IMG/VR virus record: IMGVR_UViG_2654587728_000014
Span: 5,853-69,852 of that record
Direction: 5' to 3' (one strand)
Source: a virus
Lineage: Duplodnaviria > Heunggongvirae > Uroviricota > Caudoviricetes
DNA length: 64,000 nucleotides
Both the position numbers and the translations under genes were made by a program. Shown one piece after another: positions 1,725 through 41,759 of the stretch. The first letter of the stretch is position 1, and each line of letters begins with the position of its first letter. The notes beneath the pieces are model-generated. The model did no database searches. It saw only the letters and a list, made by a program, of their open reading frames with translations, and was not told where the DNA came from.

Positions 1725-2220
1725 TTACGATGTAATTAAACGCAATGTTACGGGGACGAATGGTCACATAATTAACCCCATCGCCTCGCGAAGGACCTGC
1801 AAATGAAAAACGGGAGAATCCAGGTTGGTTGTCAAGGATTTGGTCATAGTTATTGATTGAATGACCAGACCCAATGTCAAAATTACCTGCGTAATGAGAA
1901 AAACTTGTACCATCCTGCCGTGAAAGCAGATCGCGCCCTGTATCCACTTTTCGCCCGTCGTCCCATCCACGGATAAACTCACCGCGCAAATCGGGAAGAC
2001 GGAGGGTCGGGTAGACTCTGGCCAGAACAGGATATTGTTCTTTTGTAAAGGCGCGCCCGTCGCACTTTAACCAGCCTGCTGGCGGTGTGGCAGTGGGCCA
2101 CGGAACAGGTACACCAACGGGCAGCGCCGAGCCTTCCCCCAAACCAACGTTTTCGTTTTTATCCCTACCTATACCAACTCTGTATTTTTCACGAAACAAA
2201 GAGGATGTTTTTTTATGCAA
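1714..2220 (-). CDS. alternative tail-fibre C-terminal cassette 2 (Sv''-like)
   Basis: Encodes NVGLGEGSALPVGVPVPWPTATPPAGWLKCDGRAFTKEQYPVLARVYPTLRLPDLRGEFIRGWDDGRKVDTGR and ends RPRNIAFNYIVRAA; nearly identical over ~200 bp to the H gene at 40425-40625; track start is a TTG so the real unit probably begins at the motif near 2134. Confidence 0.55.
   Translation of the reverse strand: MHKKTSSLFREKYRVGIGRDKNENVGLGEGSALPVGVPVPWPTATPPAGWLKCDGRAFTKEQYPVLARVYPTLRLPDLRGEFIRGWDDGRKVDTGRDLLSRQDGTSFSHYAGNFDIGSGHSINNYDQILDNQPGFSRFSFAGPSRGDGVNYVTIRPRNIAFNYIVRAA
2134..2159. other. candidate gix/hix-like crossover site 2
   Basis: TTCCCCCAAACCAACGTTTTCGTTTT about 55 bp upstream of the invertase start; partial dyad AAACC-AA-CGTTT. 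Confidence 0.4.
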
Positions 2221-2814
2221 ATTGGCTATATTCGTGTGTCAACAAATGACCAGAACACGGATTTACAACGCAATGCACTGAACTGCGCAGGATGTGAACT
2301 GATTTTTGAAGATAAAATCAGCGGAACGAAATCAGCCAGACCGGGATTGAAAAAACTGCTCAGAACGCTATCAGAAGGAGATACGCTGGTTGTCTGGAAG
2401 CTGGACAGACTGGGCAGAAGTATGAAACACCTGATCACGCTTATTGAGGAATTGCGGGAAAAAGGTGTTAATTTCCGTAGTCTGACGGACAGCATTGACA
2501 CATCAACACCCATGGGGCGTTTCTTTTTTCACGTCATGGGGGCTTTAGCCGAAATGGAACGTGAATTAATTGTAGAGCGTACACTGGCCGGGCTGGCAGC
2601 AGCACGCGCACAAGGACGCATTGGCGGACGTCGCCCGAAGTTGACAAAAGAACAACACGAGCAAATAGCGAGGCTGATTAAAAACGGTCATGACAGGAAA
2701 CAACTGGCGATCATTTACGACATCGGCATATCGACGATTTATCGTTATCACCCTGTAGGCGATATACAGGCTGAAGAAACAACCAGGCAGACTCAGGAAA
2801 ATAAAAACCGCTAA
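2215..2814 (+). CDS. gin: DNA invertase, serine recombinase (Gin/Hin/Pin/Cin family)
   Basis: 199 aa; MQIGYIRVSTNDQNTDLQRNAL, VVWKLDRLGRSMKHLI and MGRFFFHVMGALAEMERELIVERT match the Mu Gin sequence as I remember it, including the catalytic Ser region and C-terminal HTH. Confidence 0.9.
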   Translation: MQIGYIRVSTNDQNTDLQRNALNCAGCELIFEDKISGTKSARPGLKKLLRTLSEGDTLVVWKLDRLGRSMKHLITLIEELREKGVNFRSLTDSIDTSTPMGRFFFHVMGALAEMERELIVERTLAGLAAARAQGRIGGRRPKLTKEQHEQIARLIKNGHDRKQLAIIYDIGISTIYRYHPVGDIQAEETTRQTQENKNR

Positions 2815-2833
2815 TCTGACCATTAGCGGTTTT
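2804..2833. terminator. bidirectional intrinsic terminator hairpin between invertase and gpU
   Basis: AAAACCGCTAAT-CTGACC-ATTAGCGGTTTT perfect stem with A and T runs on both sides, overlapping the invertase stop. Confidence 0.45.
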
Positions 2834-2840
2834 GCGTTAA

Positions 2841-3335
2841 TCAAAACAGCCCTTTAACGGAGCTGGCCGCGCTGTTAAGGGATGATGTGACCTTATCTTT
2901 GAAGCCGGACAGCATATCACTGAACGATGAGGATTGCAGGCGCTCCCGCAAATCCTCATCACAGCGTTCAAGAGTCAGTGAAAATTCTATCTTTTTCGCC
3001 TTACCGTAGCGATCAAACTCGGAACGGGTCGTATTCGTTTCAGTCAGTACATACATGCCGTAAATCTGCCCGACACCATCAATCAGAGGCCAGGGGCGTC
3101 CTGTATATGCCTGCGTGGTCAGCAACGAAAGCGACACTTCGCCACCTGTAATTTCAGGATAAAGCACGCCGGAAAGCACGATGCGATCATCACCTGCGCC
3201 GATATACTGCCAGCTTGCTGAACGGTTAACGCGTTCATTTTTCACATGCCGCCAGCTTTTGTTTTGCTGTAACTGCTGATGCGGCAATGTGCGCAGCTCA
3301 AAAACAAACATGCCGTAGATCATCATCATGGCCAT
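2841..3335 (-). CDS. phage tail protein, P2 gpU-like
   Basis: 164 aa starting MAMMMIYGMFVFEL with GVLYPEITGG and WPLIDGVGQIYGMYV, matching the P2 gpU pattern as remembered. Confidence 0.75.
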   Translation of the reverse strand: MAMMMIYGMFVFELRTLPHQQLQQNKSWRHVKNERVNRSASWQYIGAGDDRIVLSGVLYPEITGGEVSLSLLTTQAYTGRPWPLIDGVGQIYGMYVLTETNTTRSEFDRYGKAKKIEFSLTLERCDEDLRERLQSSSFSDMLSGFKDKVTSSLNSAASSVKGLF

Positions 3336-3341
3336 GACTCC

Positions 3342-4757
3342 TCAATCTTTATCGTAAAAACTGCCACGCCCGGCACGGGCGCGCCGTTCCATTTCTGCCC
3401 TGACCATTTCGCCAATCAGTTTCGCCAGTTCGCGGGGATTCTGTGTAACAACGTTATGCAGATGAACATGAATTTCACCGCCAAATCCGGAGGCAACAGG
3501 CTCCCGGTTACGGGAAGTTGCAGGAACTGATGCCACTGGCGATCGTATAGCCTCCGCCACCGGGCGGGAGCTGGCCGCAACAACAGGGACCAGCGCCGGA
3601 GGCAGCGGAGCCGGAACCACGGGTGTGATAGTAATTGCGGGGGCAGGCTTACTGACCTGCGCAATCTTCCGCTCCTGCCACTCCCCACGAACAGCAAGTG
3701 CGCGGGGCAGGTTCTTAAAGACAATATCGCCGGGGCCAATGCGTTTTTTCGTCTCATCAACCAGCTTACCTGTGTTATCAGCAATTTTGCTGAGTCTGCG
3801 TAGCGTACCGGTATTGTTGTCTGTGAGCGGTTTGTTGTCTCTGGGTTTATCGCCTTTTTTGTCGTCGACCTTATCTGACGGGGCCGGGCCGGGAGTCCAT
3901 GGTTTCTGAACCATTTTCTTGAGAACCGGATCCCATTCCCACATTACAGGAGCCTTTGAAGCGTTCTCTATTTTCTTTCTCGCCCGTTCCGCTTCATCCG
4001 GAAGCACTCCGAGCTTTTCAAGTATCCACGCCAGTGAATCCATCAATGCTTTTGTTGGCGTCAGGACAAGCTCTATCGCTCCACCGAGTACCCTGCCGAA
4101 TACCTCGCCAGCACTGGTACATTTATCCAGCGTTTCCTTGCTGGACTCCATCGGTGACAGCAGCGATTTAAACCAGTTAAAGACCTGAATAATCCCATCG
4201 CGCACGACATCAAAAACTGGACCGAACCGTTCAAAGGTTTCGCGCAACGGAGCCAGCCGTTCCATAATCCCACTGAACACCCCTGCATAAAACGCCTTGA
4301 TGGGTTCCCAGTATTTCCAGATGAGAACCGCCGCAGCCACAAACGCAGCAGCAATCAATCCGACCGGGCTGAACAGCGCCCCGATAGCGCCCCCCAGTAA
4401 CGAAACGGAACCCGTCACCATTCCCCATAGTGCTGGCAGGAGCCTGACAGCATTCATTGATCCGGTCAGGAGGGAAAAGCCAAGACGCAGTTTTGCCAGC
4501 GGGCCAGCAAGCACACCAATAGCCAACGACAACGAGCCGACCGTTGCAGTCATCGCCAGCAATGCCCCACCTGCAATCAGTAGCTGGCGCGTCAGTGCCG
4601 GATGGGCCTGCGCCAGCGCCGTCACCTTTGATACCACCCGCGTGAGCCACTGCGTGACAGAACGCAGCGGACCGTCAATCAGATCTGCAATGCGGATGCG
4701 CAACCCTTCCCATGCACTGCCGAGTGATTTCAGATCGCCGTCAAGGTTGTTGGCCAT
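3342..4757 (-). CDS. tail tape-measure protein, C-terminal part only (5'-truncated, likely pseudogene)
   Basis: 471 aa with Gly/Ala-rich TM-like stretches and a C-terminal proline-rich region; about half the length of P2 gpT; frame stays open upstream only to ~4895 where unrelated sequence begins. Confidence 0.6.
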   Translation of the reverse strand: MANNLDGDLKSLGSAWEGLRIRIADLIDGPLRSVTQWLTRVVSKVTALAQAHPALTRQLLIAGGALLAMTATVGSLSLAIGVLAGPLAKLRLGFSLLTGSMNAVRLLPALWGMVTGSVSLLGGAIGALFSPVGLIAAAFVAAAVLIWKYWEPIKAFYAGVFSGIMERLAPLRETFERFGPVFDVVRDGIIQVFNWFKSLLSPMESSKETLDKCTSAGEVFGRVLGGAIELVLTPTKALMDSLAWILEKLGVLPDEAERARKKIENASKAPVMWEWDPVLKKMVQKPWTPGPAPSDKVDDKKGDKPRDNKPLTDNNTGTLRRLSKIADNTGKLVDETKKRIGPGDIVFKNLPRALAVRGEWQERKIAQVSKPAPAITITPVVPAPLPPALVPVVAASSRPVAEAIRSPVASVPATSRNREPVASGFGGEIHVHLHNVVTQNPRELAKLIGEMVRAEMERRARAGRGSFYDKD

Positions 4758-4831
4758 AACCTTTGCTGTGCGTTCAGCCTCACCGCGCGCGCCTTCAAGT
4801 TCTTTTCTCAGTTTGGGTAAGGAGCCGTCAC

Positions 4832-4906
<75 letters not shown>

Positions 4907-4907
4907 T

Positions 4908-4964
<57 letters not shown>

Positions 4965-4993
4965 CAGAACTCGCGCCAGCCTGATTGCAGATA

Positions 4994-5383
4994 TTACTCT
5001 TTTTTCTCCGTATCTGCATCGGGTTCATCAGCAAATAGCTTGCCCTGCATCCGATCCAGTTCTTCTTTTCTTACCCGCTTAACCACGCTGTAGACCCACT
5101 GAAGCGAAACACCAAATTTGCGGGCCAGTTCGTGGTGGTTGCGTCCGTTAAACTCCCTGAAGATTTCCCGGTCGCGCTGACTGACCTTCCATACCATGCC
5201 CATCGGGAAATAAACGTTTTGCCCGCCCCAGACCTGCATCATTCGGTTCGCGACGGCCTGACCAATCTGGTCGGCAACTTCGGGCTCAATATCAATAATC
5301 TCGCGAACGGTCTCAGAGGTATGCTGTGCCAGTTCCACCAGGAGTTCCGGCCCCTTACTTCGAAACTGATTCAGGTCGCTCAT
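4994..5383 (-). CDS. Mor/C-family transcriptional activator
   Basis: 129 aa; C-terminal FNGRNHHELARKFGVSLQWVYSVVKR resembles the Mor HTH region (Mu Mor FNGRN...YG...VY..I.R); acidic tail. Confidence 0.65.
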   Translation of the reverse strand: MSDLNQFRSKGPELLVELAQHTSETVREIIDIEPEVADQIGQAVANRMMQVWGGQNVYFPMGMVWKVSQRDREIFREFNGRNHHELARKFGVSLQWVYSVVKRVRKEELDRMQGKLFADEPDADTEKKE

Positions 5384-5804
5384 GTTTGACTCCCGCAGCT
5401 CTGCGCTGCCACTTCTTCAGTTTCTCAATAACACTGCTTGCCTGTTCAGTACTGAGCCAGCGCAGGGCGCTGATGCCCGTTTCCCGCTTGATCCACCTCG
5501 CTAATGCATTTTCTGAACGGTCACGAACAATGCCGGCAGCAGCCATTTCAAGCCATAGCGCACGAATTTTCCTGGACTGCGGATGGTTATCCAGCGGTAA
5601 ACCGGAGCTGGCTTTTCTGGCTGGTTTAACGCGAAAGCCTTTCTTTTTCATGGATTCCAGCACGCAGTTTAGTTGTGTGGTATCCATTCCTTTGGTTGAG
5701 GCTTTACCGGTCAGCCCCTGTAACATCTGGCGGTAGGTGTCTTCATCCATACCCAGTTCATTACGGGCAATATGGATAAGCTGTATCAGGCGTTTTTTCT
5801 GCAT
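5355..5804 (-). CDS. GemA-like protein (Mu gp16 / DUF1018 family)
   Basis: 149 aa; LIQLIHIARNELGMDEDTYRQMLQ and KIRALWLEMAAAGIVRD blocks, position just upstream of Mor as in Mu. Confidence 0.5.
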   Translation of the reverse strand: MQKKRLIQLIHIARNELGMDEDTYRQMLQGLTGKASTKGMDTTQLNCVLESMKKKGFRVKPARKASSGLPLDNHPQSRKIRALWLEMAAAGIVRDRSENALARWIKRETGISALRWLSTEQASSVIEKLKKWQRRAAGVKHERPESVSK

Positions 5805-5805
5805 A

Positions 5806-6168
5806 TCATCTCCTTTTTTTCAGTCTGTCGGCAACAATGTCGGTTGCAGCTGGCAGGGTGACTGGCCAGAACAACATGACGGCGGTCATGTACAGGATGT
5901 AATGCGCGGTGTCGTAGTGCCTGCCATAGCCCAGGGAACGATGAAGTCTTGCGCTGCATGATCCTGCGTACATATACCAGAAAAGAAAACAGACAATGGT
6001 TTCAGTAGTCATTCTGAATACCTCCCCATTCGATATGAATATTACGGGCAGCAATGACAGGGTCGTTATTCCACCATGCACCTGACATGTATTTTTCAAC
6101 CTGTTCGCGTCCGGCAATAACACCAATTGTGATCCCCGGCCTGACGTTCTTAAAAAAGGCGCGGGCAA
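5806..6168 (-). CDS. small hypothetical membrane protein (probable start near 6012)
   Basis: Hydrophobic segments CFLFWYMYAG and ILYMTAVMLFWPVTL; abuts the GemA-like stop. Confidence 0.3.
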   Translation of the reverse strand: MPAPFLRTSGRGSQLVLLPDANRLKNTCQVHGGITTLSLLPVIFISNGEVFRMTTETIVCFLFWYMYAGSCSARLHRSLGYGRHYDTAHYILYMTAVMLFWPVTLPAATDIVADRLKKRR

Positions 6169-6232
6169 AAAGGTATCTGGCAGATATTCGGCAGGCTTTT
6201 AATTTCCGGCTTTTACCTGATAGCGTAATCAT
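6002..6232 (-). CDS. hypothetical protein
   Basis: 76-aa ORF in the early-operon strand between flanking genes; no recognisable motif. Confidence 0.25.
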   Translation of the reverse strand: MITLSGKSRKLKACRISARYLFARAFFKNVRPGITIGVIAGREQVEKYMSGAWWNNDPVIAARNIHIEWGGIQNDY

Positions 6233-6948
6233 CTGGCCTCCAGTTTCTGTTGTTCCTGCCCACTGACCGGGCGGTGCAGTCTGACGTTCTGCCCTTCACG
6301 AAACCCCGCATAGCGCGAGGCGTCGCCATTGCGGCTTCTTCCCGGTTTACGCGCCCTGGTGGTTTGCGTCTGCGGGTATTTATGTTCCAGCCACTGCTGC
6401 ATCAGTTCACGCTCATCATCGGTCAGGGCAAAGGACTGTATTTCACTGATAACGGCCAGCACCCAGCCTTCGGCAAACTGGTCTCCACGGCTGGTGCGGG
6501 TGGCGGTTTTTATTCTTTTGTTCTGTGCACTGATATACTGCTGACGCGCCTTTTTCAGCTGACGGGCCAGCACTTCCCAGGTGTATGCAGCCAGTGCCGC
6601 ACGTTCCCGGTTGCCGTAGAACCCCACAGACGGATGCGTGCCGGGGTGAATGATGGAGTTAACACCAAATACCTCGCGGATGATGTTCATCAGGCCCAGC
6701 ATGTAGCGCGGTGGACGGAGACTGCCTGTCGGCCAGTAGTGACTGATGGTTTCATCAATATCACTCATAGCAATGTCGGAATGTGTGATGCCGTGAACAT
6801 CCATCAGTTTACGGGCTCGGCACAGTGCCAGAGCGGCCTCGTGCGGGTTGCCGGATGCGGCCAGCGCCAGCAACTTTTTCAGTTTCTCAATGTGTTTATT
6901 CTGGTCTGTCATTGTTCTGTATCTCCGGTATTTTTCTGCCGTTTCCAT
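6229..6948 (-). CDS. DUF2786-like protein
   Basis: 239 aa; N-terminal KLKKLLALAASGNPHEAALALCRARKLM motif typical of the DUF2786 family as I recall. Confidence 0.45.
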   Translation of the reverse strand: METAEKYRRYRTMTDQNKHIEKLKKLLALAASGNPHEAALALCRARKLMDVHGITHSDIAMSDIDETISHYWPTGSLRPPRYMLGLMNIIREVFGVNSIIHPGTHPSVGFYGNRERAALAAYTWEVLARQLKKARQQYISAQNKRIKTATRTSRGDQFAEGWVLAVISEIQSFALTDDERELMQQWLEHKYPQTQTTRARKPGRSRNGDASRYAGFREGQNVRLHRPVSGQEQQKLEAR

Positions 6949-7124
6949 GCCCGGACAGCGTCGGACAGCTCTTTCAGGCTGTATGCTGCTTTAAGCTTTT
7001 CCCATAACCACTGTGTTGTTATGTGCATCAGCAGGGCAGCCAGGGCTGCCCCCGCACTGAGGCATGTCGCCAGGCCAGTAAGAATCAGTATCCATGCGGT
7101 GATTTCCCTGAGTATGTCAGCCAT
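6909..7124 (-). CDS. small membrane protein
   Basis: 71 aa with one clear TM helix WILILTGLATCLSAGAALAALLM. Confidence 0.35.
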   Translation of the reverse strand: MADILREITAWILILTGLATCLSAGAALAALLMHITTQWLWEKLKAAYSLKELSDAVRAWKRQKNTGDTEQ

Positions 7125-7138
7125 TGAATGCCTCCCGG

Positions 7139-7435
7139 TTACTCGTTCGTGTAAATCACGCCCAGTCGTGCAGCCAGACGTTCCAGTTTTTTCTGTTTGT
7201 GGAAGTCAATCAGCCGGTCCATCCCCTGAAGGCGCAATTGCTCTGTCATGATTTCCACGTCTGCCAGCTCTGCCGCGAGGTCGCTTTCGCTGCCCTGTCC
7301 GTTCAGATTGCGGGCAGCACTGGCCGCCAGTTCAGCGGCCTCTTCTGTCAGTTTCAGGGCCTGTGCGTCCGGCCCGAAACGCTGCAGGGCCAGACGGTAG
7401 AGGGCGGTGCGGGTGAGTATGGTGTTCCGTGTCAT
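7139..7435 (-). CDS. hypothetical protein, possible MazG-like all-alpha fold
   Basis: 98 aa; LTEEAAELAASAA and ELADVEIM motifs resemble MazG/HisE-type helices; weak. Confidence 0.3.
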   Translation of the reverse strand: MTRNTILTRTALYRLALQRFGPDAQALKLTEEAAELAASAARNLNGQGSESDLAAELADVEIMTEQLRLQGMDRLIDFHKQKKLERLAARLGVIYTNE

Positions 7436-7444
7436 GCCGCGCCC

Positions 7445-7717
7445 TCAGTGCTTCCGGCTGACGGTGATGTGCAGGCCGCCTTCTGCAGTGGTTTCCATCC
7501 GGTACGGCACCTCATGCGCTGCCGTGTGGGTTAGTGTGTTCACCAGTACCTGCAGGGCAGCCGCCTTTCCGTTGGTCGCCACAATGGCTTGAGCGGTCAT
7601 GCTGATTAGCGCCGTCAGGACGTGCTTCACATCGGTGAGGTCGCGGCATTCACACTCGTTGACATAGTGTTCAACAAGGGTTCGGGTGCGCTGTCGTGCT
7701 TCCTGTGGGGTAATCAT
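7445..7717 (-). CDS. hypothetical protein
   Basis: 90-aa ORF tightly packed in the minus-strand operon. Confidence 0.35.
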   Translation of the reverse strand: MITPQEARQRTRTLVEHYVNECECRDLTDVKHVLTALISMTAQAIVATNGKAAALQVLVNTLTHTAAHEVPYRMETTAEGGLHITVSRKH

Positions 7718-7908
7718 TGCGAGTCCTCCCTGTCAGGGCGGGAGAATTCCATGACGGGCACGTCTGCCGAAAAATGCTGGCTGCAGTACGGGCAGACCAG
7801 GGTGACGCGTACCGCAGGGATGTGGTATTTACCGGACATCACGGCGATGGCGCTGTGAAAACGCAGGGCTGTTATATCCCTCTCGCACTGAATACATTTA
7901 AATATCAT
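7714..7908 (-). CDS. small Cys4 zinc-ribbon-like protein
   Basis: 64 aa with CIQC...CPYC spacing typical of a zinc ribbon. Confidence 0.35.
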   Translation of the reverse strand: MIFKCIQCERDITALRFHSAIAVMSGKYHIPAVRVTLVCPYCSQHFSADVPVMEFSRPDREDSQ

Positions 7909-8005
7909 GATTTAATTCTCCTCTGTTTCCGGCGTGCAGAAGCCCGCGGCGCTGACGTCGGAATAAAAAAGAAAATGTTTTTATTAAATAATTAACGTGG
8001 TGTGT

Positions 8006-8536
8006 TTACTGCACATCCTGCTCAAAAGGAATTATTGAAAAATCCTCAATGTCGCTTTTAATGGAAATACCGGGAATATTTTTCACGGCCTCTTTTTCAT
8101 TCAGGATAGCGTCTTTATTTATTTCCTCTTTTACACGAATAAAGCGCTCAAGCCCCAGACGTCTCAGCAGTTCAATGACATTATCCGCCCCGCGAATGCT
8201 GACTGACGGCGGACGGTTTCGCCACTGCACCTCGCCGGTGGTGAGGTTAGCGAACTTCACCTTCCCGTTGCCGGTCAGTTCATCACGGTGCGCCTCACAC
8301 CATGTCTGGATACCGGACTGCAGTTCGGCCATGCGTTTTTTCAGGCTCTCGGTGAGCGGGGCATAACGTGCAGTGATGTCGCCAATGGTGTCATTCATTT
8401 CTGTTTCAGCCCTGACCAGTTCACGTTGCGCGTCACCAAGCAGTCTGATTCCCTCAATGACCTCTTCGCGTGTCCCCGGCACCCAGAGTGCTGCTGCGGC
8501 TTTGATACGTTTTGCCCCTTTTGTACTTTTTGCCAT
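8006..8536 (-). CDS. gam: host-nuclease inhibitor protein Gam (Mu Gam family)
   Basis: 176 aa; MAKSTKGAKRIKAAAA, ELTGNGKVKFANLTTGEVQWRNRPPSVSIRG and GISIKSDIEDFSIIPFEQ match Mu Gam closely as remembered. Confidence 0.85.
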   Translation of the reverse strand: MAKSTKGAKRIKAAAALWVPGTREEVIEGIRLLGDAQRELVRAETEMNDTIGDITARYAPLTESLKKRMAELQSGIQTWCEAHRDELTGNGKVKFANLTTGEVQWRNRPPSVSIRGADNVIELLRRLGLERFIRVKEEINKDAILNEKEAVKNIPGISIKSDIEDFSIIPFEQDVQ

Positions 8537-8563
8537 ATTTTATGACTCCTCCTGTTGTGCTGA

Positions 8564-8833: not shown

Positions 8834-8835
8834 TA

Positions 8836-13035: not shown

Positions 13036-13045
13036 TGATTACTCC

Positions 13046-14161: not shown

Positions 14162-14926
14162 TCAGAAGTTGCAGATTAGCAGTTCACGGCGCGGCGTGGG
14201 TTTACCCGCCAGACTGTAGTTGATATTCACTGTCTGTATGTTCAGTCCAGTGAACACCTCGCGCATCTGCGGGATGTCGTTCACCGAAATTATCATTTTT
14301 CCTCTGATGCACCGGGCCAGCTCTGCCAGCCGCGAGTAGTTCCCTTCAGGAAAATCCACACCATAGCCTTCCGTACCCAGGTACGGTGGGTCGCAGTAGA
14401 ACAGCGTGTGCGGACGATCATAACGCTCAATGCACTGTTGCCAGTCCATGTGTTCTATGACTGTTCTGGAAAGCCGCAGGTGTGCCGCTGACAGTTCTTC
14501 TTCAATACGTAGCAGGTTGAAGCGTGGCGGGGATGTGGTGGAGGTACCGAAGCTGTGCTCTGCCACCTTGCCGCCAAACGCCTGCTTCTGAAGGTAGTAG
14601 AACCGTGCCGCACGCTGGATATCCGTCAGTGTTTCTTCCGGGGTGATCTGCAGCCATTTGTAGATCTGACGGCTGACCAGCGCCCATTTGAACTGGCGGA
14701 CAAATTCTTCCAGGTGATGCTTTACCACCCGGTACAGATTCACCAGTTCACCGTTGATATCATTGATGACTTCGATCTTGCCGGGTGTCTTAAGAAAATA
14801 GAGCGCTGCTGCCCCACAAAACGGCTCCACATAACATTCATGCGCCGGAAACAGCGGCAGAATGTGTTTTGCAAGGCGGCGTTTGCCACCAATCCACGGC
14901 ACGATGGGTAATGTCTGCATTTTCAT
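14162..14926 (-). CDS. DNA N6-adenine methyltransferase (Dam-like)
   Basis: PIVPWIGGKRRLAKHILPLFP AdoMet-binding start and DPPY catalytic motif; probable start at the internal MKMQ. Confidence 0.8.
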   Translation of the reverse strand: MKMQTLPIVPWIGGKRRLAKHILPLFPAHECYVEPFCGAAALYFLKTPGKIEVINDINGELVNLYRVVKHHLEEFVRQFKWALVSRQIYKWLQITPEETLTDIQRAARFYYLQKQAFGGKVAEHSFGTSTTSPPRFNLLRIEEELSAAHLRLSRTVIEHMDWQQCIERYDRPHTLFYCDPPYLGTEGYGVDFPEGNYSRLAELARCIRGKMIISVNDIPQMREVFTGLNIQTVNINYSLAGKPTPRRELLICNF

Positions 14927-15116
14927 AATCTGCAAGCCTTTTACAATTATTAAAAAATATGGCAGTCTGGTCAGGTCTCGCGAGACTGACTGAACCTTGG
15001 TCGGCTCACAGCGCATTCCTGTGGGGCGATGACCAGCCCGGCTTTCGGGTGCCGGGCTGGTCGTTCTTTCATGATGCGGCAGGGATGGCGGGATTTCTGT
15101 TAATGTGGTTTAGGGA

Positions 15117-34236: not shown

Positions 34237-35378
34237 ACAGCACTGCGCAAGTCACATCAGCGTTAACCGGCGTCAGCGATGTGCTGACACCGGTGTTCAC
34301 TTTGTGGTATCTGCAGAAAAACATCACCTCTGATATCGCGCCTTATGTCACCCGTGTGACCTGGAGCGATAACATCAAAAATGAGTCCGATACCATTGAG
34401 GTGGAGCTGGACGACACCGATGGCCGCTGGCTGGATAAATGGTATCCGGGCAAGGGTGACACGCTGACGCTGAAAATGGGCTATCAGGGCGAGAAGCTGC
34501 TGTCCTGCGGTACGTTCTCTATAGACGAGATCGAAGTGAGTTCGCCCGCTTCCGTTGTTTCTATCCGTGGGGTGGCCACCTCGGTTAACAGTGCCCTGCG
34601 GACTAAAACCAGTCGTGGTTTTGAGAACACCACGCTGGCAGCTGTTGCGGGGCGGATTGCCAGAAAGCACCGACTGAAACTGGTGGGCAGCATTGAGTCC
34701 ATCAGAATCGACCGGGTGACCCAGTATGCTGAAACCGACGTGGGTTTTCTGCGCCGGCTGGCCAGCGAGTATGGTTATGCAGTGAAAGTGGTCAGTGACC
34801 AGCTGATTTTTTCTCATCTGGCCACACTGCGCAGTCAGGAGCCGGTCAGGCAGTTAAAACCGCAGGATGTGGCCCGCTTTTCCCTGCGTGACACCATCAA
34901 CCGGGTCTATAAATCTGCAAAGGTAAAACACCAGAAAAGCAGCAGTAAAAAACTGATCGTCTACGAAGCTGATGGTGGTACCCGTGAAAGCGACAAAAAG
35001 CTCAAAGGTGGTAAGGTTACCAGCGCTGACTCACTTAAAGTTAACAGCCGCGTCAGCGACCCGGACAGTGCCCGGATTAAAGCGGATTCAGCACTGGCCA
35101 GACATAACGAATACCAGCAGAACGGCTCCCTGACGCTGACGGGAACACCTCAACTGACAGCAGGCAACAAAATTGAACTGGTGGGTTTTGGGCAGTTATC
35201 CGGGCCATGGCTCATAACCACTGCCCGCCATGCGTTTGACCGTAACAGCGGCTACACCACAGAGCTGGAAGTGGCACGGGGGCCAGTCACAAGAGGGAAA
35301 AAACAAAAAACTCAGAAACTCACGGTTTATCACCCGGATGGCAGTACATCGACGGTGATTAAGGAGAAGAAAAAATGA
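34224..35378 (+). CDS. tail protein, P2 gpD / Mu P-like
   Basis: 384 aa in the position after tape measure and X. Confidence 0.7.
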   Translation: MAEINSTAQVTSALTGVSDVLTPVFTLWYLQKNITSDIAPYVTRVTWSDNIKNESDTIEVELDDTDGRWLDKWYPGKGDTLTLKMGYQGEKLLSCGTFSIDEIEVSSPASVVSIRGVATSVNSALRTKTSRGFENTTLAAVAGRIARKHRLKLVGSIESIRIDRVTQYAETDVGFLRRLASEYGYAVKVVSDQLIFSHLATLRSQEPVRQLKPQDVARFSLRDTINRVYKSAKVKHQKSSSKKLIVYEADGGTRESDKKLKGGKVTSADSLKVNSRVSDPDSARIKADSALARHNEYQQNGSLTLTGTPQLTAGNKIELVGFGQLSGPWLITTARHAFDRNSGYTTELEVARGPVTRGKKQKTQKLTVYHPDGSTSTVIKEKKK

Positions 35379-35971
35379 CTGGTGTCACTCGTCAGGTCGG
35401 TACGGTCAGTGCCGTTGATGCCGACAGGGTTCAGGCCCGCGTTCGTCTGCCTGAATGCGATAACCTGCGCACAAACTGGCTTAACGTGCTGCAGCGCAAT
35501 ACCCAGGATAACAAAGATTACTGGCTCCCTGACGTGGGGGAGCAGGTTGAGGTGCTGCTCGATGCCAACGGCGAGGATGGTGTTATTCTGGGCGCGGTGT
35601 ATTCAGACGTCGATAAACCACCGTTCAGTGACAAAAATATCCGGGGAACCCGGTTTGCTGATGGTGCAGAGTACAGCTACAACCGGAAGACGCACACTCT
35701 GACCATCCGGGGCGGCATTGAGCATATTGTCATTGAGTGTGGTGCTGATGTGGTATTGAAAACACAGAAAGCCACGATTGACGCACCGGAAACCGAACTT
35801 ACCGGAGATCTGCGTGTCAGGGGTAAGCTGATTTACGAAGGAGGCATGGCGGGTTCTGGTGGTGAAGGTGTTACCGCGACCATCCATGGCAATATCGAGA
35901 TTAAAGGGAATGCCCATGCCACGGGCAGTATGTTGTCTGATGGCGAAAACTCCAGCCACCACTCCCACTGA
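35375..35971 (+). CDS. baseplate assembly protein V (spike)
   Basis: 198 aa; order V-W-J-I. Confidence 0.7.
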   Translation: MTGVTRQVGTVSAVDADRVQARVRLPECDNLRTNWLNVLQRNTQDNKDYWLPDVGEQVEVLLDANGEDGVILGAVYSDVDKPPFSDKNIRGTRFADGAEYSYNRKTHTLTIRGGIEHIVIECGADVVLKTQKATIDAPETELTGDLRVRGKLIYEGGMAGSGGEGVTATIHGNIEIKGNAHATGSMLSDGENSSHHSH

Positions 35972-36025
35972 GCTTTTTAAACGCCTTTAATATCAGCGTT
36001 CCCGCACGGGGGCAATACTGCCCCC

Positions 36026-36373
36026 ATGAAAACAACCTCAGTATTCTGGCAACCGACCCTGCAGGCTCCCGGCGAAATTGTCCGGGGGCTGGATGATATC
36101 CGGCAGGCGATTCAAATTATCCTGCGGACTCCCCGCGGCAGCGACCCGCATCGCCCGGAGTTCGGCAGCAATCTGCATCTTTATATCGACTGGCCTGTAG
36201 ACCGGGCCATTCCGCATGTGGTGCGCGAATCCGTCGATGCCATCCGGCGCTGGGAGCCCCGCTGCCAGCTTATGTCAGTTAAACCCGCCGTCGACGGCGA
36301 ACATCTTACGCTCCGGGTGAGCTGGAAAGGCTCAGACGGACAGACCCGGACTCAGGAGCTGCTATGGCGCTGA
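36026..36373 (+). CDS. baseplate protein W (gp25-like)
   Basis: 115 aa between V and J. Confidence 0.65.
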   Translation: MKTTSVFWQPTLQAPGEIVRGLDDIRQAIQIILRTPRGSDPHRPEFGSNLHLYIDWPVDRAIPHVVRESVDAIRRWEPRCQLMSVKPAVDGEHLTLRVSWKGSDGQTRTQELLWR

Positions 36374-37467
36374 CAGAACCCGATTTTATTGAACGCGATG
36401 CCGACAAAATCACGGCAGAAATGATTGCGAAGTATGAAGCGGATACCGGCAAAACGCTGTACCCGGCACAGGCAGAACGTCTGCTGATTGATCTGTGGGC
36501 CTATCGCGAAATGCTGGTCAGGGTTGCGGTACAGGAGGCAGCAAAGCAGAATCTGGTCGCCTTTGCCCGTGAGCCGATGATTGATTACCTCGGTGAACTG
36601 GTCGGTGTATACCGTCTTGCCGCGCAGCCTGCCACTACCACGCTCCAGTTCTCCGTAGATGAGGCACTGGCCATTGATGTGCTGATCCCGGCAGGCACCC
36701 GCGTCAGCGCTTCCGACAGCGTTATTTTTGCCACCGATACAGATGTGGTACTGAAGGCCGGATTGCTGCTGGTCAATGTCACGTCCACCTGTACCGAACC
36801 CGGTACCGCTGGTAACGGCTGGCAACCTGCGCAGGTCAGTCAGTTACTCGATGAGATTGATAACGTCGACCTGCTGGTGAGCAATCTGACGGCCAGTTCC
36901 GGCGGTTCAGAACAGGAAGACGATGACAGGCTCCGGGAGCGTATCAGGCTGGCCCCGGAGTCATTCACCAATGCCGGAAGCCGTGGCGCATACCGCTTTC
37001 ATGCCATGCAGGCCCATCCCAACATTGTCGATGTTGCTGTGCTTTCCCCGGTTCCCGGGACCGTAGATCTGTATCCGCTGCTCAGTACCGGTCTGCCGGA
37101 CGGCGGTGTTCTCACGCTGGTAGAGAGTTTCTGCTCTGATGAGAAAGTCAGGCCACTCACTGATACAGTGCGGGCTAAAACACCAGTGAAGGTGGATTAC
37201 ACCATTGAAGCCAAGATTACGATCTATCGTGATCAGGATGCCAGGTCTGTAAAAGATGCCGCTAACAGCGCCATACAGAACTGGGTGGCATCACGTGCCG
37301 CCACGCTGGGGCGCGATATTGTCCCCAGCCAGATTATCAGTGCATTGTCCGTTTCCGGGGTGTACCAGGTTGAACTGGTGACACCGGCACTGCGGGTGGT
37401 GGCAGAAAACGAATGGGCAAACTGTACGGCAATCACTCTTAACATGACTGGAGTGTCTGATGACTGA
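36364..37467 (+). CDS. baseplate protein J
   Basis: 367 aa. Confidence 0.75.
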   Translation: MALTEPDFIERDADKITAEMIAKYEADTGKTLYPAQAERLLIDLWAYREMLVRVAVQEAAKQNLVAFAREPMIDYLGELVGVYRLAAQPATTTLQFSVDEALAIDVLIPAGTRVSASDSVIFATDTDVVLKAGLLLVNVTSTCTEPGTAGNGWQPAQVSQLLDEIDNVDLLVSNLTASSGGSEQEDDDRLRERIRLAPESFTNAGSRGAYRFHAMQAHPNIVDVAVLSPVPGTVDLYPLLSTGLPDGGVLTLVESFCSDEKVRPLTDTVRAKTPVKVDYTIEAKITIYRDQDARSVKDAANSAIQNWVASRAATLGRDIVPSQIISALSVSGVYQVELVTPALRVVAENEWANCTAITLNMTGVSDD

Positions 37468-38038
37468 GCCATTACAACTCCCGCCACCGCTTGAGGGTGA
37501 TATCAGTCTCAGGACGCTGGGAAGACTGGCAGGACGGCTGGATAACATCGACCTGAGCGTACTGATGGTCTTTCTCGTCGATATCGTCGACAGTTCCGCG
37601 CTGCCATGGCTGGGCGAGCAGTTCTCACTGTCTGGCGATGGCTGGGAGCTGGCGGAATCGGACGATGTTCGCCGCATGCTTATAAAAGCAGCCATCGAAC
37701 TGCACCGGTATAAAGGGACGCCGTGGTCAATCCGGGAAGTTATCCGCCGTTTTGGCTTTGGTGAAGTGGATCTGATTGAAGGCACAGGTCGTCTCAGTTA
37801 CGACGGCAATCGCAGCTATAACGGACTGTTTGTTCATGGAGATGCAGCCGCCTGGGCAGTTTATCGCGTTATTCTGAAACAGCCCATTACTAACGATCAG
37901 GCCGCGATGCTGCGTCAGACGCTCGCTGCATTTGCACCGGCCCGCTGCCATCTGGCCAGCCTGGAGTATCAGTCTGTGGCCATTCGCTATAACAATACCG
38001 CCATCCATGATGGCAGTTATAACCACGGGAGCAGTTGA
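37460..38038 (+). CDS. tail protein I (baseplate, fibre attachment)
   Basis: 192 aa between J and the tail fibre. Confidence 0.65.
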   Translation: MTEPLQLPPPLEGDISLRTLGRLAGRLDNIDLSVLMVFLVDIVDSSALPWLGEQFSLSGDGWELAESDDVRRMLIKAAIELHRYKGTPWSIREVIRRFGFGEVDLIEGTGRLSYDGNRSYNGLFVHGDAAAWAVYRVILKQPITNDQAAMLRQTLAAFAPARCHLASLEYQSVAIRYNNTAIHDGSYNHGSS

Positions 38039-39489
38039 TTATGGGAAACCTGAATGAAACAGAAAAGTGGGAAGAAAATATCTATCAACTGGAGACATCA
38101 GATCCGGTTCTGGGTGGTGCAGACGGGATATCAAATCGAGCCCCCCGGCAACTGGCAAACAGGACGAAATGGCTGAAGAAAAAAACGGAGGAAGCCGCAC
38201 AGTCACTGGCTGAACACGTACGTTCCCGTAACCACCCGGACGCGACACTGACAGCTAAGGGGTTCACCCAACTGAGCAGTGCCACCAACAGCACCTCTGA
38301 AACGCTGGCCGCCACACCAAAGGCCGTCAAGGCTGCATATGACCTGGCTGCCGGCAAGGCCCCCGTCAGCCATACTCACCCGTGGAGTCAGATAACGGGA
38401 GTGCCTGCTGCCTCGCTGACGGCAAAAGGCACCGTACAACTGAGCAGCGCCACGGACAGTCAATCAGAAACTGAGGCTGCCACGCCGAAGGCGGTCAAGG
38501 CTGCATACGACCTTGCAGCCGGCAAGGCGCCCGTCAGCCACACTCACCCGTGGAGTCAGATAACGGGAGTGCCTGCTGCCTCGCTGACGGCAAAAGGCAC
38601 CGTACAACTGAGCAGCGCCACGGACAGTCAATCAGAAACTGAGGCTGCCACGCCGAAGGCGGTCAAGGCTGCATACGACCTTGCAGCCGGCAAGGCGCCC
38701 GTCAGCCACACTCACCCGTGGAGTCAGATAACGGGAGTGCCTGCTGCCTCGCTGACGGCAAAAGGCACCGTACAATTGAGCAGTGCCATCAACAGCACGT
38801 CTGAAATACTGGCCGCCACACCGAAAGCGGTCAAGGCTGCATACGATCTGGCAAACGGAAAACAACCGGCAGATGCCACGCTCACTGCTCTGGCAGGACT
38901 TGCCACTGCAGCAGATCGGTTGCCTTATTTTACCGGAGCAGACCGCGCAGAGCTGGCAACCCTTACAGCTATTGGTCGCGCTATTATCGCTAAGGGCAGT
39001 ATAAAAGATGTCCTCAATTACCTTGGTTTGGGGGAAGGCTCTGCATTGCCTGTTGGTGTACCGGTTCCATGGCCCACCGCCACACCGCCAGCAGGCTGGT
39101 TACAGTGCAACGGAGCTACGTTCACCAAAGAACAATATCCTGTTCTGGCCAGAGTCTACCCGACCCTCCGTCTTCCCGATTTGCGCGGTGAGTTTATCCG
39201 TGGATGGGACGGTGGTCGCAAGGTTGATACCGGGCGTGCGCTACTTTCATTTCAGGAAGGGACTATCGTATCCGGTTTTGATGATAATGATACCGGAGAT
39301 ATCAGTTCGCTCGGCTCTACACAATACGGATTTGGTGACGCTTTAACCTCTAATCAACTGGGGGTCTTAAATGGCAAAAAGTGGATATTTGATGCATCCT
39401 CTAAAGGTGCACAAAGATATGACTGGTGGGCTTATGTATCAGCTCGCCCCCGCAATATCGCATTTAACTATATCGTGAGGGCGGCGTGA
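38035..39489 (+). CDS. tail-fibre protein of the Mu-like prophage
   Basis: 484 aa; three 56-aa shaft repeats; C-terminal NYLGLGEGSALPVGVPVPWPTATPPAGWL...RPRNIAFNYIVRAA shared with the P2-like H gene; no tfa gene follows on this strand. Confidence 0.85.
   Translation: MIMGNLNETEKWEENIYQLETSDPVLGGADGISNRAPRQLANRTKWLKKKTEEAAQSLAEHVRSRNHPDATLTAKGFTQLSSATNSTSETLAATPKAVKAAYDLAAGKAPVSHTHPWSQITGVPAASLTAKGTVQLSSATDSQSETEAATPKAVKAAYDLAAGKAPVSHTHPWSQITGVPAASLTAKGTVQLSSATDSQSETEAATPKAVKAAYDLAAGKAPVSHTHPWSQITGVPAASLTAKGTVQLSSAINSTSEILAATPKAVKAAYDLANGKQPADATLTALAGLATAADRLPYFTGADRAELATLTAIGRAIIAKGSIKDVLNYLGLGEGSALPVGVPVPWPTATPPAGWLQCNGATFTKEQYPVLARVYPTLRLPDLRGEFIRGWDGGRKVDTGRALLSFQEGTIVSGFDDNDTGDISSLGSTQYGFGDALTSNQLGVLNGKKWIFDASSKGAQRYDWWAYVSARPRNIAFNYIVRAA
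38251..38880. repeat. tandem 168-bp coding repeats (~3.7 copies) in the tail-fibre gene
   Basis: Copies at about 38419-38586 and 38587-38754 look identical by eye; flanking copies diverged; each encodes TAKG..QLSSA..S.SET.AATPKAVKAAYDLA..K.PVSHTHPWSQITGVPAASL. Confidence 0.7.
39011..39036. other. gix/hix-like motif in the Mu-like fibre gene
   Basis: TCCTCAATTACCTTGGTTTGGGGGAA; its GGTTTGGGGGAA half is the reverse complement of the TTCCCCCAAACC half at 2134. Confidence 0.3.
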
Positions 39490-39495
39490 TACCGT

Positions 39496-40110
39496 TCAGC
39501 CGGCAAGCGCCAGTGGCGCTTCCGGCCAGCTGATTTCAGGTGCCTTGCTGATATCCAGTGCGTTCAGCTCGTCGATATAATCCAGCACGGCGTTCAGTTT
39601 TGCCGTTTCTTCTGGTTTCAGACTGCGACCAGCACGCAGTTTGAGGTTGATAAGATCGACGGACGCCATCGCCTGTTTCACCCGTTGCTGGCGTTGCTGT
39701 CTGGCAACCTCCAGTTCTGCGGCTCGCTGCCGTTCAGTATCGGTTACCCACGCCTCACCGTTCCAGGTATCCCATGGCGTGGCTGGCTGTTTTGTGGTGG
39801 TGTCCGCCGGGTAATCACCCGGTTGGGTAATCAGAACGGGGTTACCGTTCTCCGTGCTGTATACCGTCTCGCCGCGGTGATCAGGCACATGCTCCCACCC
39901 GTTCAGCGTGGCAGTCCGGCAAACCACGTAACCCGAAATTGCTTCCGGCGGTGCATCGGCGCACGAATGTGCCGGAGTACCCACCCCAAGGGCGAGATAC
40001 TCCACAGAGGATGAGGTGTATTCCCGGGTTTCCTCGTCATAGTGATATACAGTGATATCGCCCGCTACAGTGGCGATACCGTTTTCATCCAGAACTGCAG
40101 TGTTACTCAT
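39496..40110 (-). CDS. tail-fibre assembly protein (P2 G-like)
   Basis: 204 aa homologous to the Tfa at 196-789; start overlaps the H stop. Confidence 0.8.
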   Translation of the reverse strand: MSNTAVLDENGIATVAGDITVYHYDEETREYTSSSVEYLALGVGTPAHSCADAPPEAISGYVVCRTATLNGWEHVPDHRGETVYSTENGNPVLITQPGDYPADTTTKQPATPWDTWNGEAWVTDTERQRAAELEVARQQRQQRVKQAMASVDLINLKLRAGRSLKPEETAKLNAVLDYIDELNALDISKAPEISWPEAPLALAG

Positions 40111-41759
40111 TAAACTGCCCTCACAATGTAATTAAGTGCAATGCTACGGGGTCTGACAGTGATACCCTTCGCATACCCGCTTCTGATAGAGGTCAGAATA
40201 GTAGCCTGCATACCATTGTCTGACATTGCCACGACAGGATCGCTGAATGTTGTCCCGTCCGGCATTTTAAAGCTGCCCTCACGAAGGTCTGTAATGGAAT
40301 CTTCATTGTTGAATCCCATGCCGACTATCCCCGAGGTTCCCGTAGTGTCCTGGTTATAATAATCCAGCATTGCTGTTCTTAACAGCGTTGCCCCTTGTGC
40401 GGACAGCAACTTACGTCCTGTATCAACTTTGCGCCCGTCGTCCCATCCACGGATAAACTCACCGCGTAAATCGGGAAGACGGAGGGTCGGGTAGACTCTG
40501 GCCAGAACAGGATATTGTTCTTTTGTAAAGGCGCGCCCGTCGCACTTTAACCAGCCTGCTGGCGGTGTGGCGGTGGGCCACGGAACAGGCACACCAACGG
40601 GTAGCGCCGAGCCTTCTCCTAAACCAAGGTAATCAAGAACTCCCTGAGTGCTGGTTTTACCAAGAATGGCACGTCCAACACTTGTCAACGCGGTTAACGC
40701 GGCACGATCTGCCCCTGTAAAATATGGGAGTTTATCTGCTGATGTAGCAAGCTCCGCCAGCGCCGTCAGGGTGGCATCCTTCGGTTGCTTACCCGCAAGC
40801 GCGTTAGTCATGGTGGTCGCAAAATTCGGGTCATTGCCCAGCGCTGCAGCCAGTTCGTTCAGCGTGTTCAGTGCATCAGGTGACGAATCTACAAGTGCGG
40901 CAATCGCAGCCATAACGAAAGCCGTGCTTGCGATCTGGGCACTATTAGTCCCCTGTGGCGCTGTTGGTGTTGTTGGCGTTCCGGTCAGTGCCGGGCTGTT
41001 TAATGGTGCTTTCTTGTTCGTTTCATCCATTACCGCCTTAACAGCTTTTGGTGTCGCTGCCAGCGTTTCAGACGTGCTGTTCGTGGCGCTACTGAGCTGA
41101 ACAATCCCTTTTTGTGTAGTGGTGGCGTTCTGGGCGGTATATTTCCCGTTAGCCAGGTCATATGCAGCCTTAACCGCTTTCGGTGTTGCGGCCAGTGTTT
41201 CTGATTCACTGTTAATTGCACTGCTTAACTGAGTAAAACCTTTTACGGTCAGCGAGGCGTCCGGGTGACGTCGTGACTGTTCGTGCTCTGATATTTTATC
41301 ATCCACATATTTGCGGGTTGCCAGAACCACAGACGGGTCGATTTTCAGCGTGATGGCTTCGGTGTTCGTGACAACCAGAATCATGCGGATAGTCTGGGTG
41401 CGTCCACTGCCTTCCTGCAACTGCGGTTTGTACGTTTCCGGGCAGTTTGCCACCGCAATGAGTGCACCTTCATCATCATAAAGACCAATCTCACGGATCC
41501 AGAATCCTCCCTCGTTTTCAGGGATGATTTGCTCCGCAATAATCTGGCTCTGATTGTTAGGGTCAACACTCAGAAGATTCAGCGGTGCAATGCGTTTCTG
41601 GTTAATCAGTTTTGTTTGTGCAGGGTCTGGTGTTGGTAACACACCATTTGCATCACCAACGGCCATTTGCGTCAGATTCAGCTTACTGCCGAGCATCGTC
41701 GCGTTAGCCAGTCGTGCTGCGCCCTGATTAGTCAGAATGGCGTAGTATTTCACTGTCAT
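40110..41759 (-). CDS. tail-fibre protein (P2 H-like)
   Basis: 549 aa; N-terminus MTVKYYAILTNQGAARLA with WIREIGLYDDEGALIAVAN matches the P2 gpH N-domain as remembered; C-terminal region shared with the other fibres. Confidence 0.85.
   Translation of the reverse strand: MTVKYYAILTNQGAARLANATMLGSKLNLTQMAVGDANGVLPTPDPAQTKLINQKRIAPLNLLSVDPNNQSQIIAEQIIPENEGGFWIREIGLYDDEGALIAVANCPETYKPQLQEGSGRTQTIRMILVVTNTEAITLKIDPSVVLATRKYVDDKISEHEQSRRHPDASLTVKGFTQLSSAINSESETLAATPKAVKAAYDLANGKYTAQNATTTQKGIVQLSSATNSTSETLAATPKAVKAVMDETNKKAPLNSPALTGTPTTPTAPQGTNSAQIASTAFVMAAIAALVDSSPDALNTLNELAAALGNDPNFATTMTNALAGKQPKDATLTALAELATSADKLPYFTGADRAALTALTSVGRAILGKTSTQGVLDYLGLGEGSALPVGVPVPWPTATPPAGWLKCDGRAFTKEQYPVLARVYPTLRLPDLRGEFIRGWDDGRKVDTGRKLLSAQGATLLRTAMLDYYNQDTTGTSGIVGMGFNNEDSITDLREGSFKMPDGTTFSDPVVAMSDNGMQATILTSIRSGYAKGITVRPRSIALNYIVRAV
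40614..40639. other. gix/hix-like motif in the H gene
   Basis: TTCTCCTAAACCAAGGTAATCAAGAA; left half identical to site 1 at 1695; inverted relative to the motif at 39011. Confidence 0.3.

Follow-up and report, generated by a model that had tools for sequence, protein, structure and literature searches.

The 64,000-nucleotide stretch of DNA analyzed here (the window), taken from the Caudoviricetes record IMGVR_UViG_2654587728_000014, corresponds to bases 6284-70283 of contig JHRJ01000008.1 (GCA_001267345.1); the 6,283 nt of left flank are given negative coordinates. We propose that it holds two nested prophages whose tail-fibre-switching systems recombined with each other, a reading to which we assign a probability of about 0.8 from the sequence. 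The tape-measure gene T of a P2-like (P88-like) prophage was interrupted by a Mu-like transposable phage, and an invertase-driven inversion of ~40 kb would then have joined the switch of one prophage to that of the other. The product is a composite with five crossover sites and two invertases, in which the P2-type fibre gene H carries a Mu-type tip (cassette B) and its chaperone, and in which the Mu-like prophage is split. An earlier note on this DNA had drawn attention to a near-identical direct repeat in two fibre cassettes, which it took to bracket the whole Mu-like prophage, to mark a P2-like cassette and invertase separated from their locus, and to offer a substrate for RecA-mediated deletion. 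The observation is confirmed; the interpretation is partly supported.

A Mu-like phage within gene T of a P88-like prophage

The Mu-like element matches Escherichia phage PhiKM, a classified member of Bcepmuvirus, at 99.4% identity and is 100% identical to prophages in many E. coli genomes, with a sharp start at ~4832. Its early genes (Mor, Gam, a MuB-like ATPase and an rve transposase, with a repressor region also present) lie on the minus strand and its late genes, the last of which is the fibre gene S, on the plus strand. We class it as a transposable phage on the Pfam matches to rve, AAA_22 and Mor, on Gam, on its defined termini and short target duplication, and on its occurrence at three insertion sites: otsB/araH, aroA/ycaL and gene T. 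The termini take the form TGAT...ATCA with GATAAATG motifs. In EcPF7, an intact copy lies between otsB and araH, with the Mor end on one side and, at the other end, cassettes followed by the phage's own 190-residue invertase; its termini are identical to those found here and are flanked by a 6-bp duplication, CCATTT. At the two sites checked, this Bcepmuvirus duplicates 6 bp of target, as against the 5 bp of phage Mu.

The surrounding prophage carries the Pfam labels Q, P, O, N, M, L, X, R, S, V, W, J, I and H of a P2-like phage together with GPA and gpU, and its invertase, U and T region has ~90% DNA identity to Xuanwuvirus P884B11 and P88. The normal P88-like order runs from H through the cassettes to the invertase, then U, T, E, FII and FI on the other strand, then D and ogr. 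We considered the opposite-strand FI-U block as a rearrangement and rejected it, as this arrangement is normal in P88-like phages and in the prophages of FAM21845, Ceylon31 and BEC1 (E. coli BEC1-S17-ESBL-09). A pattern search between D and FI found no crossover-like site.

In an alignment with intact T of FAM21845, the left-flank half corresponds to positions 1-1330 and the half in the window (4831 down to 3342) to positions 1325-2808. The N-terminal half ends ...GCGG GTGACG, followed by TGATGCGCC..., and the C-terminal half starts after ...CTAATCA with GTGACG GCTCC..., whereas intact T reads ...GGTGACGGCTCC... across the insertion point. The 6-bp duplication GTGACG is found at both Mu termini (4826-4831 and -993 to -988). 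Because the two halves tile one gene and GTGACG stands at both ends, a PhiKM-like phage must have transposed into T of the P88-like prophage, duplicating GTGACG and leaving that prophage without an intact tape-measure gene. An arrangement in which two different P2-like prophages flank the Mu-like one would account for P2-like genes on both sides of it with no need of an inversion. Between them, however, the two sides supply just one gene set: D, FI, FII and E lie on the left with the N-terminal half of T, the other half of T comes with U and the invertase, and H to the integrase lie on the right. With the T halves tiling a single gene around a 6-bp duplication, we regard the presence of two P2-like prophages as extremely improbable.

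The T halves and the Mu termini now lie on opposite strands and in opposite orientation, an arrangement explained only by an inversion with one endpoint in the invertible region of the Mu-like phage. The left flank holds what the inversion model had predicted beforehand: the head of cassette c0, a second, Mu-type invertase of 190 residues, a Mu terminus and the N-terminal half of T, with gpE, E', tube, sheath and gpD beyond. At the other end, the stop codon of S is separated from the oppositely oriented tail-fibre assembly gene tfa_B by six bases. The end of a Mu-type phage is too big to fit into six bases, so the junction between S and H had to be recombinational.

Hybrid junctions at the crossover core

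A pattern search identified five crossover sites (x1-x5; Table 1) of the form ...ACG/ACC-TT-GGTTTRGGRGAAG, oriented + - - + - and sharing the central TT. They are short, have a 2-bp core, sit at junctions between constant and variable parts and occur in inverted orientation. Three sites are present in the Mu-like prophages, three in prophages of the BEC1 type and five in the composite, a number typical of multiple-inversion systems rather than of a simple two-site switch.

We assigned parentage by comparing 300 nt on each side of the core, with a base-level check over 60 nt. At x1, the constant side is 100% Mu-type (77% for P2 references) and the cassette side, the head of c0, matches the H-fused cassette of the P2-like prophage in Ceylon31 at 99.3% (74% for Mu references). 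At x3 and x5, the constant sides are P2-type (99.3% and 99%, respectively) and the cassette sides are 100% Mu-type. Site x4 is Mu-type on both sides, and x2 joins a Mu-type C tail, which agrees at 60 of 60 positions with the internal C-tail site of EcPF7, of LS4 and also of the BEC1 P2-like prophage, to a P2-type c1 head.

At base resolution, the constant side of x5 matches FAM21845 at 60 of 60 positions and the cassette side matches EcPF7 at 60 of 60. The last base diagnostic of P2 is at -1 and the first diagnostic of B at +6, which places the exchange within TTGGTTT (≤7 nt), and all three hybrid junctions change parent within TT-GGTTT. BLAST gives the same picture on a larger scale: 39020-40630 (A, tfa_B and B) is 99.88% identical to EcPF7, 40612-42400 is 98.7% identical to H and I of FAM21845, and the two matches overlap in just the 19-nt site at x5; on the other side of the Mu-like body, 2133-2900 is 99.2% identical to the FAM21845 invertase region. 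The natural isomers EcPF7 and LS4 contain the same three constant half-sites with cassette half-sites permuted exactly at the core. In these isomers, as in the hybrid junctions, the constant half-sites are fixed in context and the cassette half-sites are mobile.

These junctions indicate that the recombination was probably site-specific and not homologous, because the parent changes at a 2-bp core and a homologous exchange would resolve in the better 230-nt homology next to it. A RecA-dependent inversion between the inverted fibre-gene repeats I1 and I2 has points in its favor: such repeats do exist (392 nt at 77% and 244 nt at 86%, respectively), homologous inversions between prophages are well known in E. 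coli, and the two parents of a comparable case, E. coli 4/0, share regions of 98-99% identity. We nevertheless find it distinctly unlikely, because all three hybrid junctions switch within 7 nt of the core despite that adjacent homology, the cassette heads are single-parent at 99-100% from their first base, and the partner sites on the minimal path have almost no flanking homology. For example, beyond the core the identity between B and c1 is 28.5%, with no exact run longer than 13 nt, and the best Mu match to the constant side of H over 60 nt is 37/60.

Both candidate enzymes are present. The two invertases are intact, 86% identical to each other, and align with Gin crystal sequences at E ~1e-91 to 1e-93. 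The P2-type enzyme (inv_P2) has the domains PF00239 (1.5e-51) and PF02796 (Resolvase, HTH_7), is 99.2% identical in DNA to that of FAM21845, matches Gin structure 4m6f at E = 3e-91 and is 73% identical to Gin of phage Mu; the Mu-type enzyme aligns to Gin residues 1-181, including the catalytic VSTNDQ. Gin, Cin, Pin and Hin are mutually interchangeable, and systems of the Gin type depend in cis on a recombinational enhancer, bound by Fis, in the 5' part of the invertase gene; homology to Gin leads one to expect such an enhancer here too. Action of one prophage's invertase on the sites of another is documented for PinQ of a cryptic prophage, which inverts the e14 segment (PMC12529663).

The direct repeat and its three copies

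The flagged repeat is a direct pair, 1922-2150 and 40402-40630, with 214 of 229 nt identical (93%; 15 mismatches by pairwise count), an exact run of at most 104 nt and a spacing of 38,480. Identity in the 100 nt on either side drops to 28% and 23%, which is background level. The earlier note had set ~90% identity and 50 bp as the lower limits for its claim, and the pair lies above both; the ‘handful’ of differences it saw by eye between 1945 and 2145 amounts to 8 mismatches, and the direct orientation and the 38.5-kb distance hold, as both copies code on the minus strand. A third copy (39020-39263, plus strand) is inverted and more divergent, so that the copies in C (‘cassette 2’ of the note) and in H are indeed nearer each other (C-B, 92%) than either is to it (C-A, 86%; A-B, 84%). 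All three encode the peptide LGLGEGSALPVGVPVPWPTATPPAGWL...RGEFIRGWD. The repeat is the collar-domain head, that is the start, of the receptor-binding C-terminal fibre cassettes C and B.

Where the earlier note saw P2-like sequence in both copies, we find Mu-type cassettes. Cassettes C and B are 99-100% identical to cassettes of the PhiKM-like Bcepmuvirus prophage, and P2 is the closest reference of neither. The stretch 1694-2150, which includes C, is 99.3% identical to the fibre C-terminus of EcPF7 (L003 7240-7696), with all of the first 300 nt matching (300/300), and the copy in the H gene is cassette B, 100% identical over 300 nt to EcPF7, LS4 and 4/0. In the native Mu-like switch, the heads of C and B are direct and ~440 nt apart (sites 8960 and 9399 of LS4); the inversions moved them 38.5 kb apart with their direct orientation retained. 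The repeats do not enclose the whole Mu-like prophage, the invertase and second terminus of which lie left of the window (-987 to -300).

The proposal that cassette 2 and the invertase are native to the P2-like prophage, were moved by an unspecified rearrangement and left a repeat of interest mainly as a RecA deletion substrate is thus correct on one point of origin and not on the other. The invertase at 2215-2814 is P2-type, with a 300-nt flank 99.3% identical to FAM21845 as against 77.6% for Mu-like references, and its separation from the P2-like H gene by rearrangement stands, the rearrangement being the ~40-kb inversion between invertase crossover sites. C-type cassettes are also found on some P2-like prophages (H-fused copies at ~92%; BEC1 at 98.7%), and the 104-nt exact run, within 93% identity over 229 nt, is longer than RecA recombination minimally requires. 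Set against these points are the better match of cassette 2 to the Mu-like copy (99.3-100%, as against 98.7% for the best P2-like copy), the Mu-type identity of the other repeat copy, and the position of the Mu-like invertase and right terminus outside the repeats. A synthetic junction for the predicted deletion product, moreover, found no place with ≥80% coverage among 5,426 closed E. coli genomes. We consider this account unlikely as a whole. Deletion between direct sites is normally disfavored by Gin-type invertases, and deletion between the C and B repeats would strand the Mu-type invertase and one terminus and leave T unrepaired.

A 36.3-kb contig of sequencing run SRR21136863 (Logan), equivalent to the window from 2062 onward, contains the same insertion of the Mu-like phage into the tape-measure gene; a look-up of the truncated tape-measure reading frame led to this one additional run. 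It starts within the 104-nt exact run of C and B, from which it follows that short-read assemblies break at the flagged repeat; its other end is expected at the tandem repeat of S.

A model for the order of events

We modeled the history with six blocks and five oriented sites, enumerating all inversions between inverted sites, and 64 arrangements could be reached. Cassettes A, B and C were assumed to come from the Mu-like phage, as in EcPF7, and c0 and c1 from the P88-like prophage, as in Ceylon31 and FAM21845. Under that ownership, the shortest route from the native to the observed order takes two inversions, one large and one local. Before these inversions, the Mu-like phage inserted into T with the GTGACG duplication. 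Next, in a large inversion whose outcome is seen in the present map, an exchange between the head of B and the site joining c1 to the constant part of H would have flipped ~40 kb containing the Mu body, the C-terminal half of T, gpU, the P2-type invertase and some cassettes. Its endpoints were, by strong inference, Gin-type sites, one in the switch of each phage, with one or both invertases cutting the 2-bp core. Finally, supposing that A, B and C arrived with the Mu-like phage, at least one more local inversion, between x1 and x3 in the new cluster between the two invertase genes, would have followed. This last step is possible only after the large inversion, which suggests that the system stayed active.

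In the resulting composite, S is an intact fusion of its constant part with A, and the chaperone gene tfa_B lies downstream of the B tip of H. The Mu-like termini at -987 and 4832 both read rightward and are thus in direct orientation, which would block transposition-replication until the segment flips back. Because x1 and x5 are still inverted with respect to each other, reversal is mechanistically possible. The composite could therefore be a live, reversible switch in which a ~40-kb flip restores or breaks the Mu-like prophage and tips are traded between P2-type and Mu-type fibres, although we hold this extension of the model to be doubtful. If it is correct, cross-talk of the 4/0 type would reversibly invert the core chromosome between prophages, and invertase cross-talk would be a general route for exchange of host-range modules and for programmed large inversions.

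Several points weigh against the inversion history proposed here. The source is a draft short-read assembly that captures one assembled state, and the SRR21136863 contig, breaking inside the repeat, gives no confirmation of orientation. Inversion over ~40 kb may not be efficient for these Gin-type invertases. P88-like prophages of the BEC1 type natively carry A, B, C and tfa_B at 98.7-100% identity, so cassette ownership is inferred from identity levels and is not absolute; with another original distribution of cassettes, a single large x1-x5 inversion could have been enough. Lastly, the parents in 4/0 are too alike near the sites to tell site-specific from homologous recombination.

BEC1 itself (L007 6335-10290) is an un-rearranged P88-like prophage in which a switch of the Mu-like type, 98-100% identical to those of Bcepmuvirus prophages, adjoins a P2-type invertase. 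Common to both are the three sites, A, B, C and tfa_B, as well as the internal C-tail site and the final 300 nt of the constant fibre part. This switch looks as if the two phage families had exchanged parts earlier and the product had become fixed.

An independent case in E. coli 4/0

In the closed genome of E. coli 4/0 (NZ_CP023849.1, ~955.0-1004 kb), aroA/ycaL is the site of a Mu-like prophage and serS/dmsA that of a P88-like one. On the left, serS, ogr, D, FI through T, U and the P2-type invertase lead into cassettes, which are followed by the Mu-type invertase and then by aroA, serC and the genes up to dmsCBA, all of them inverted. On the right, the integrase through J, I and the constant part of H lead into cassettes, which are followed by the constant part of S through Mor and ycaL. 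This order corresponds to an inversion of ~45 kb between the two switches that includes ~16 kb of core chromosome (dmsABC, ycaC, ycaD, pflAB, focA, ycaO, ycaP, serC and aroA are reversed relative to K-12), with both reciprocal junctions present. The 4/0 cluster between the two invertases has two A-type cassette heads.

The insertion site in 4/0 differs from that in the window, and the event is therefore independent. Among the 5,426 closed genomes, Mu-type and P2-type baseplate genes converge on a shared cassette cluster in 4/0 only, which marks the event as rare but recurrent; the left composite cluster of the window (Mu-type invertase, cassettes, P2-type invertase) has no match among closed E. 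coli genomes.

The 4/0 genome also bears on the possibility that an assembler jumped between similar cassette heads and produced a false order. The window does come from a short-read draft, the contig of another run breaks inside the 104-nt run, and such switches are heterogeneous within cultures (PMC4272514). By contrast, as can be reasoned from the map, a path switch at the C/B repeat would give a 38.5-kb circle and leave one Mu end orphaned; it would not yield a native order. The two reciprocal junctions agree with each other and are found on a single contig, and the cassette heads, 7-30% different, can be assembled through. Because an equivalent architecture exists in the closed assembly of 4/0, where an artefact is unlikely, we judge misassembly of the window to be very improbable.

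Organization of the window

Positions of the features are collected in Table 1. The region of tfa0 (146-1012) is 96.4% identical to the FAM21845 P2-like prophage, and the head of c1 matches the P2-type c1 of FAM21845 and Ceylon31 over 35 nt only. H is an intact open reading frame of 549 residues, and the exact H protein is known only from this contig. Within S, a 168-nt tandem repeat is present in three copies (38248-38861; Phage_fiber_2 repeats). Its copy number seems to vary between strains, and RefSeq labels the LS4 and 4/0 copies of S as pseudogene fragments.

Table 1 Features of the window and its left flank, with crossover sites x1-x5
Feature	Position	Strand	Description
x1	-270	+	Mu-type invertase side joined to c0; hybrid
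Cassette c0, 3' part	1-196	+	Ends in RPRNIAFNYIVRAA; starts at x1, 270 nt left of the window
tfa0	196-789	+	Tail-fibre assembly, P2-type; phrog_105, 3e-83
tfa1	761-1204	-	Tail-fibre assembly; phrog_188, 8e-57
Cassette c1	1206-1692	-	phrog_1396 tail fibre; other fold class, without collar head
x2	1693-1708	-	C tail joined to c1 head
Cassette C	1714-2131	-	Mu-type; ‘cassette 2’ of the earlier note; holds repeat copy 1 (1922-2150)
x3	2132-2147	-	P2-type invertase side joined to C head; hybrid
inv_P2	2215-2814	+	Gin-family serine invertase, the P88-like prophage's own
gpU	2841-3335	-	P2 gpU-type tail protein; PF06995, 5.5e-39
T, C-terminal half	3342-4831	-	Open reading frame of 471 residues, cut by the Mu-like insertion; duplication copy CGTCAC at 4826-4831
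Mu-like body	4832-39022		From the Mor-side terminus (TGATTAGAC...) to the end of the constant part of S
S	38035-39489	+	Mu-like fibre gene; constant part (Sc) fused to cassette A
x4	39023-39038	+	Sc joined to A; native Mu-type
tfa_B	39496-40110	-	Mu-type tail-fibre assembly; PF02413; within a 1,611-nt stretch 99.88% identical to EcPF7
Cassette B	40110-40611	-	Mu-type; repeat copy 2 (40402-40630)
H	40110-41759	-	Hybrid fibre gene; P2-type N-terminal and constant part (Hc) fused in frame to Mu-type B tip
x5	40612-40627	-	Hc joined to B; hybrid, one breakpoint of the large inversion
Rest of P88-like prophage	41756-64000		Minus strand: I, J, W, V, S, R, lysis genes, X, L, M, N, O; plus strand: P and Q; also ParM, stability genes, replication gene A; integrase at window edge

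Other observations concern the two prophages separately. A D12-class N6-adenine DNA methyltransferase (14162-15016, minus strand) lies between the early and late regions of the Mu-like element. Next to gene A of the P88-like prophage are an actin-like segregation protein, ParM (PF06406, PF21523), and Plasmid_stab_B (54776-56051, minus strand); genes for partition would not be expected in a P2-like phage that integrates. At the 3' end of the gene A region, 42-nt direct repeats (TCGTTTACGGGATTC...) at 56080-56194 and 56842-56883 may be linked to a replication origin. The window has no tRNA genes, and a composition scan of it showed no sharp boundaries.

Implications and comparison with known systems

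With both reciprocal products on one molecule and breakpoints at the crossover core, the mechanism of tip exchange can be read directly from the junctions. The arrangement suggests that fibre-switching invertases of co-resident prophages can use each other's sites, and that a cross-prophage inversion can move host-range cassettes between phage families and disable a transposable prophage by misorienting its ends. There are also implications for annotation. Near such a switch, what is annotated as a ‘P2 tail-fibre gene’ or as a ‘Mu-like prophage boundary’ may be chimeric, and short-read assemblies break, and may mis-join, at these positions.

The composite shares with the G segment and Gin of Mu, the C segment and Cin of P1 and the P segment and Pin of e14 a Gin-family invertase of 190-199 residues, crossover sites at junctions, and promoterless alternative C-terminal cassettes with tail-fibre assembly chaperones. 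It differs in having more than two sites per phage and in the joining of sites that belong to two prophages and lie ~40 kb apart; those systems flip a 2-4-kb segment, whereas here a whole prophage body flips. The Min system of plasmid p15B is a shufflon-like, multiple-inversion fibre system with six crossover sites. As in Min, several sites (three in the Mu-like phage, five in the composite) allow cassettes to be permuted as well as flipped. By contrast, the composite is built from two systems with two invertase genes, and in half of its isomers a prophage is broken.

Exchange of tail-fibre segments among unrelated phages is said to have been inferred from mosaic sequences by Haggard-Ljungquist in 1992 and Sandmeier in 1992-94. 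The two phage families studied here likewise draw on one cassette pool, as the 98-100% identity of the BEC1 switch illustrates, but in the window both reciprocal products of the exchange are kept on one molecule. Large chromosomal inversions between prophages occur in E. coli O157 by homologous recombination. They resemble the present case in having two co-resident prophages as endpoints, and in 4/0 core genes are inverted too; the breakpoints described here, however, are confined to a crossover core of ≤7 nt, on each side of which the sequence is of a single parent.

In E. coli, local inversion of fibre segments is on record for Mu and P2-like prophages (PMC4272514). As in the PinQ/e14 pair, a Pin/Gin-family invertase of one prophage would here have acted on sites of another, but in that system both sites lie within e14 and the flip is 1.8 kb (PMC12529663). 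Here, one site lies in each prophage, the DNA between their two switches is inverted and cassettes change owner. Among ST131 wound isolates, fibre ‘translocation’ has been described among invertase-carrying prophages of the P88, BP-4795 and phiE255 (BcepMu-like) types (bioRxiv 10.1101/2022.05.07.487787). These include the same two families, both with invertases, and fibre segments vary between sister isolates; that preprint reports altered fibre proteins and a 70-bp repeat, without resolving crossover cores, reciprocal junctions or a large inversion. In a limited full-text literature search, we found no description of a reciprocal, core-resolved inversion between the switches of two prophages. 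All components of the composite are thus of known kinds, and the exchange between prophages is an uncommon but well-resolved variant of them.

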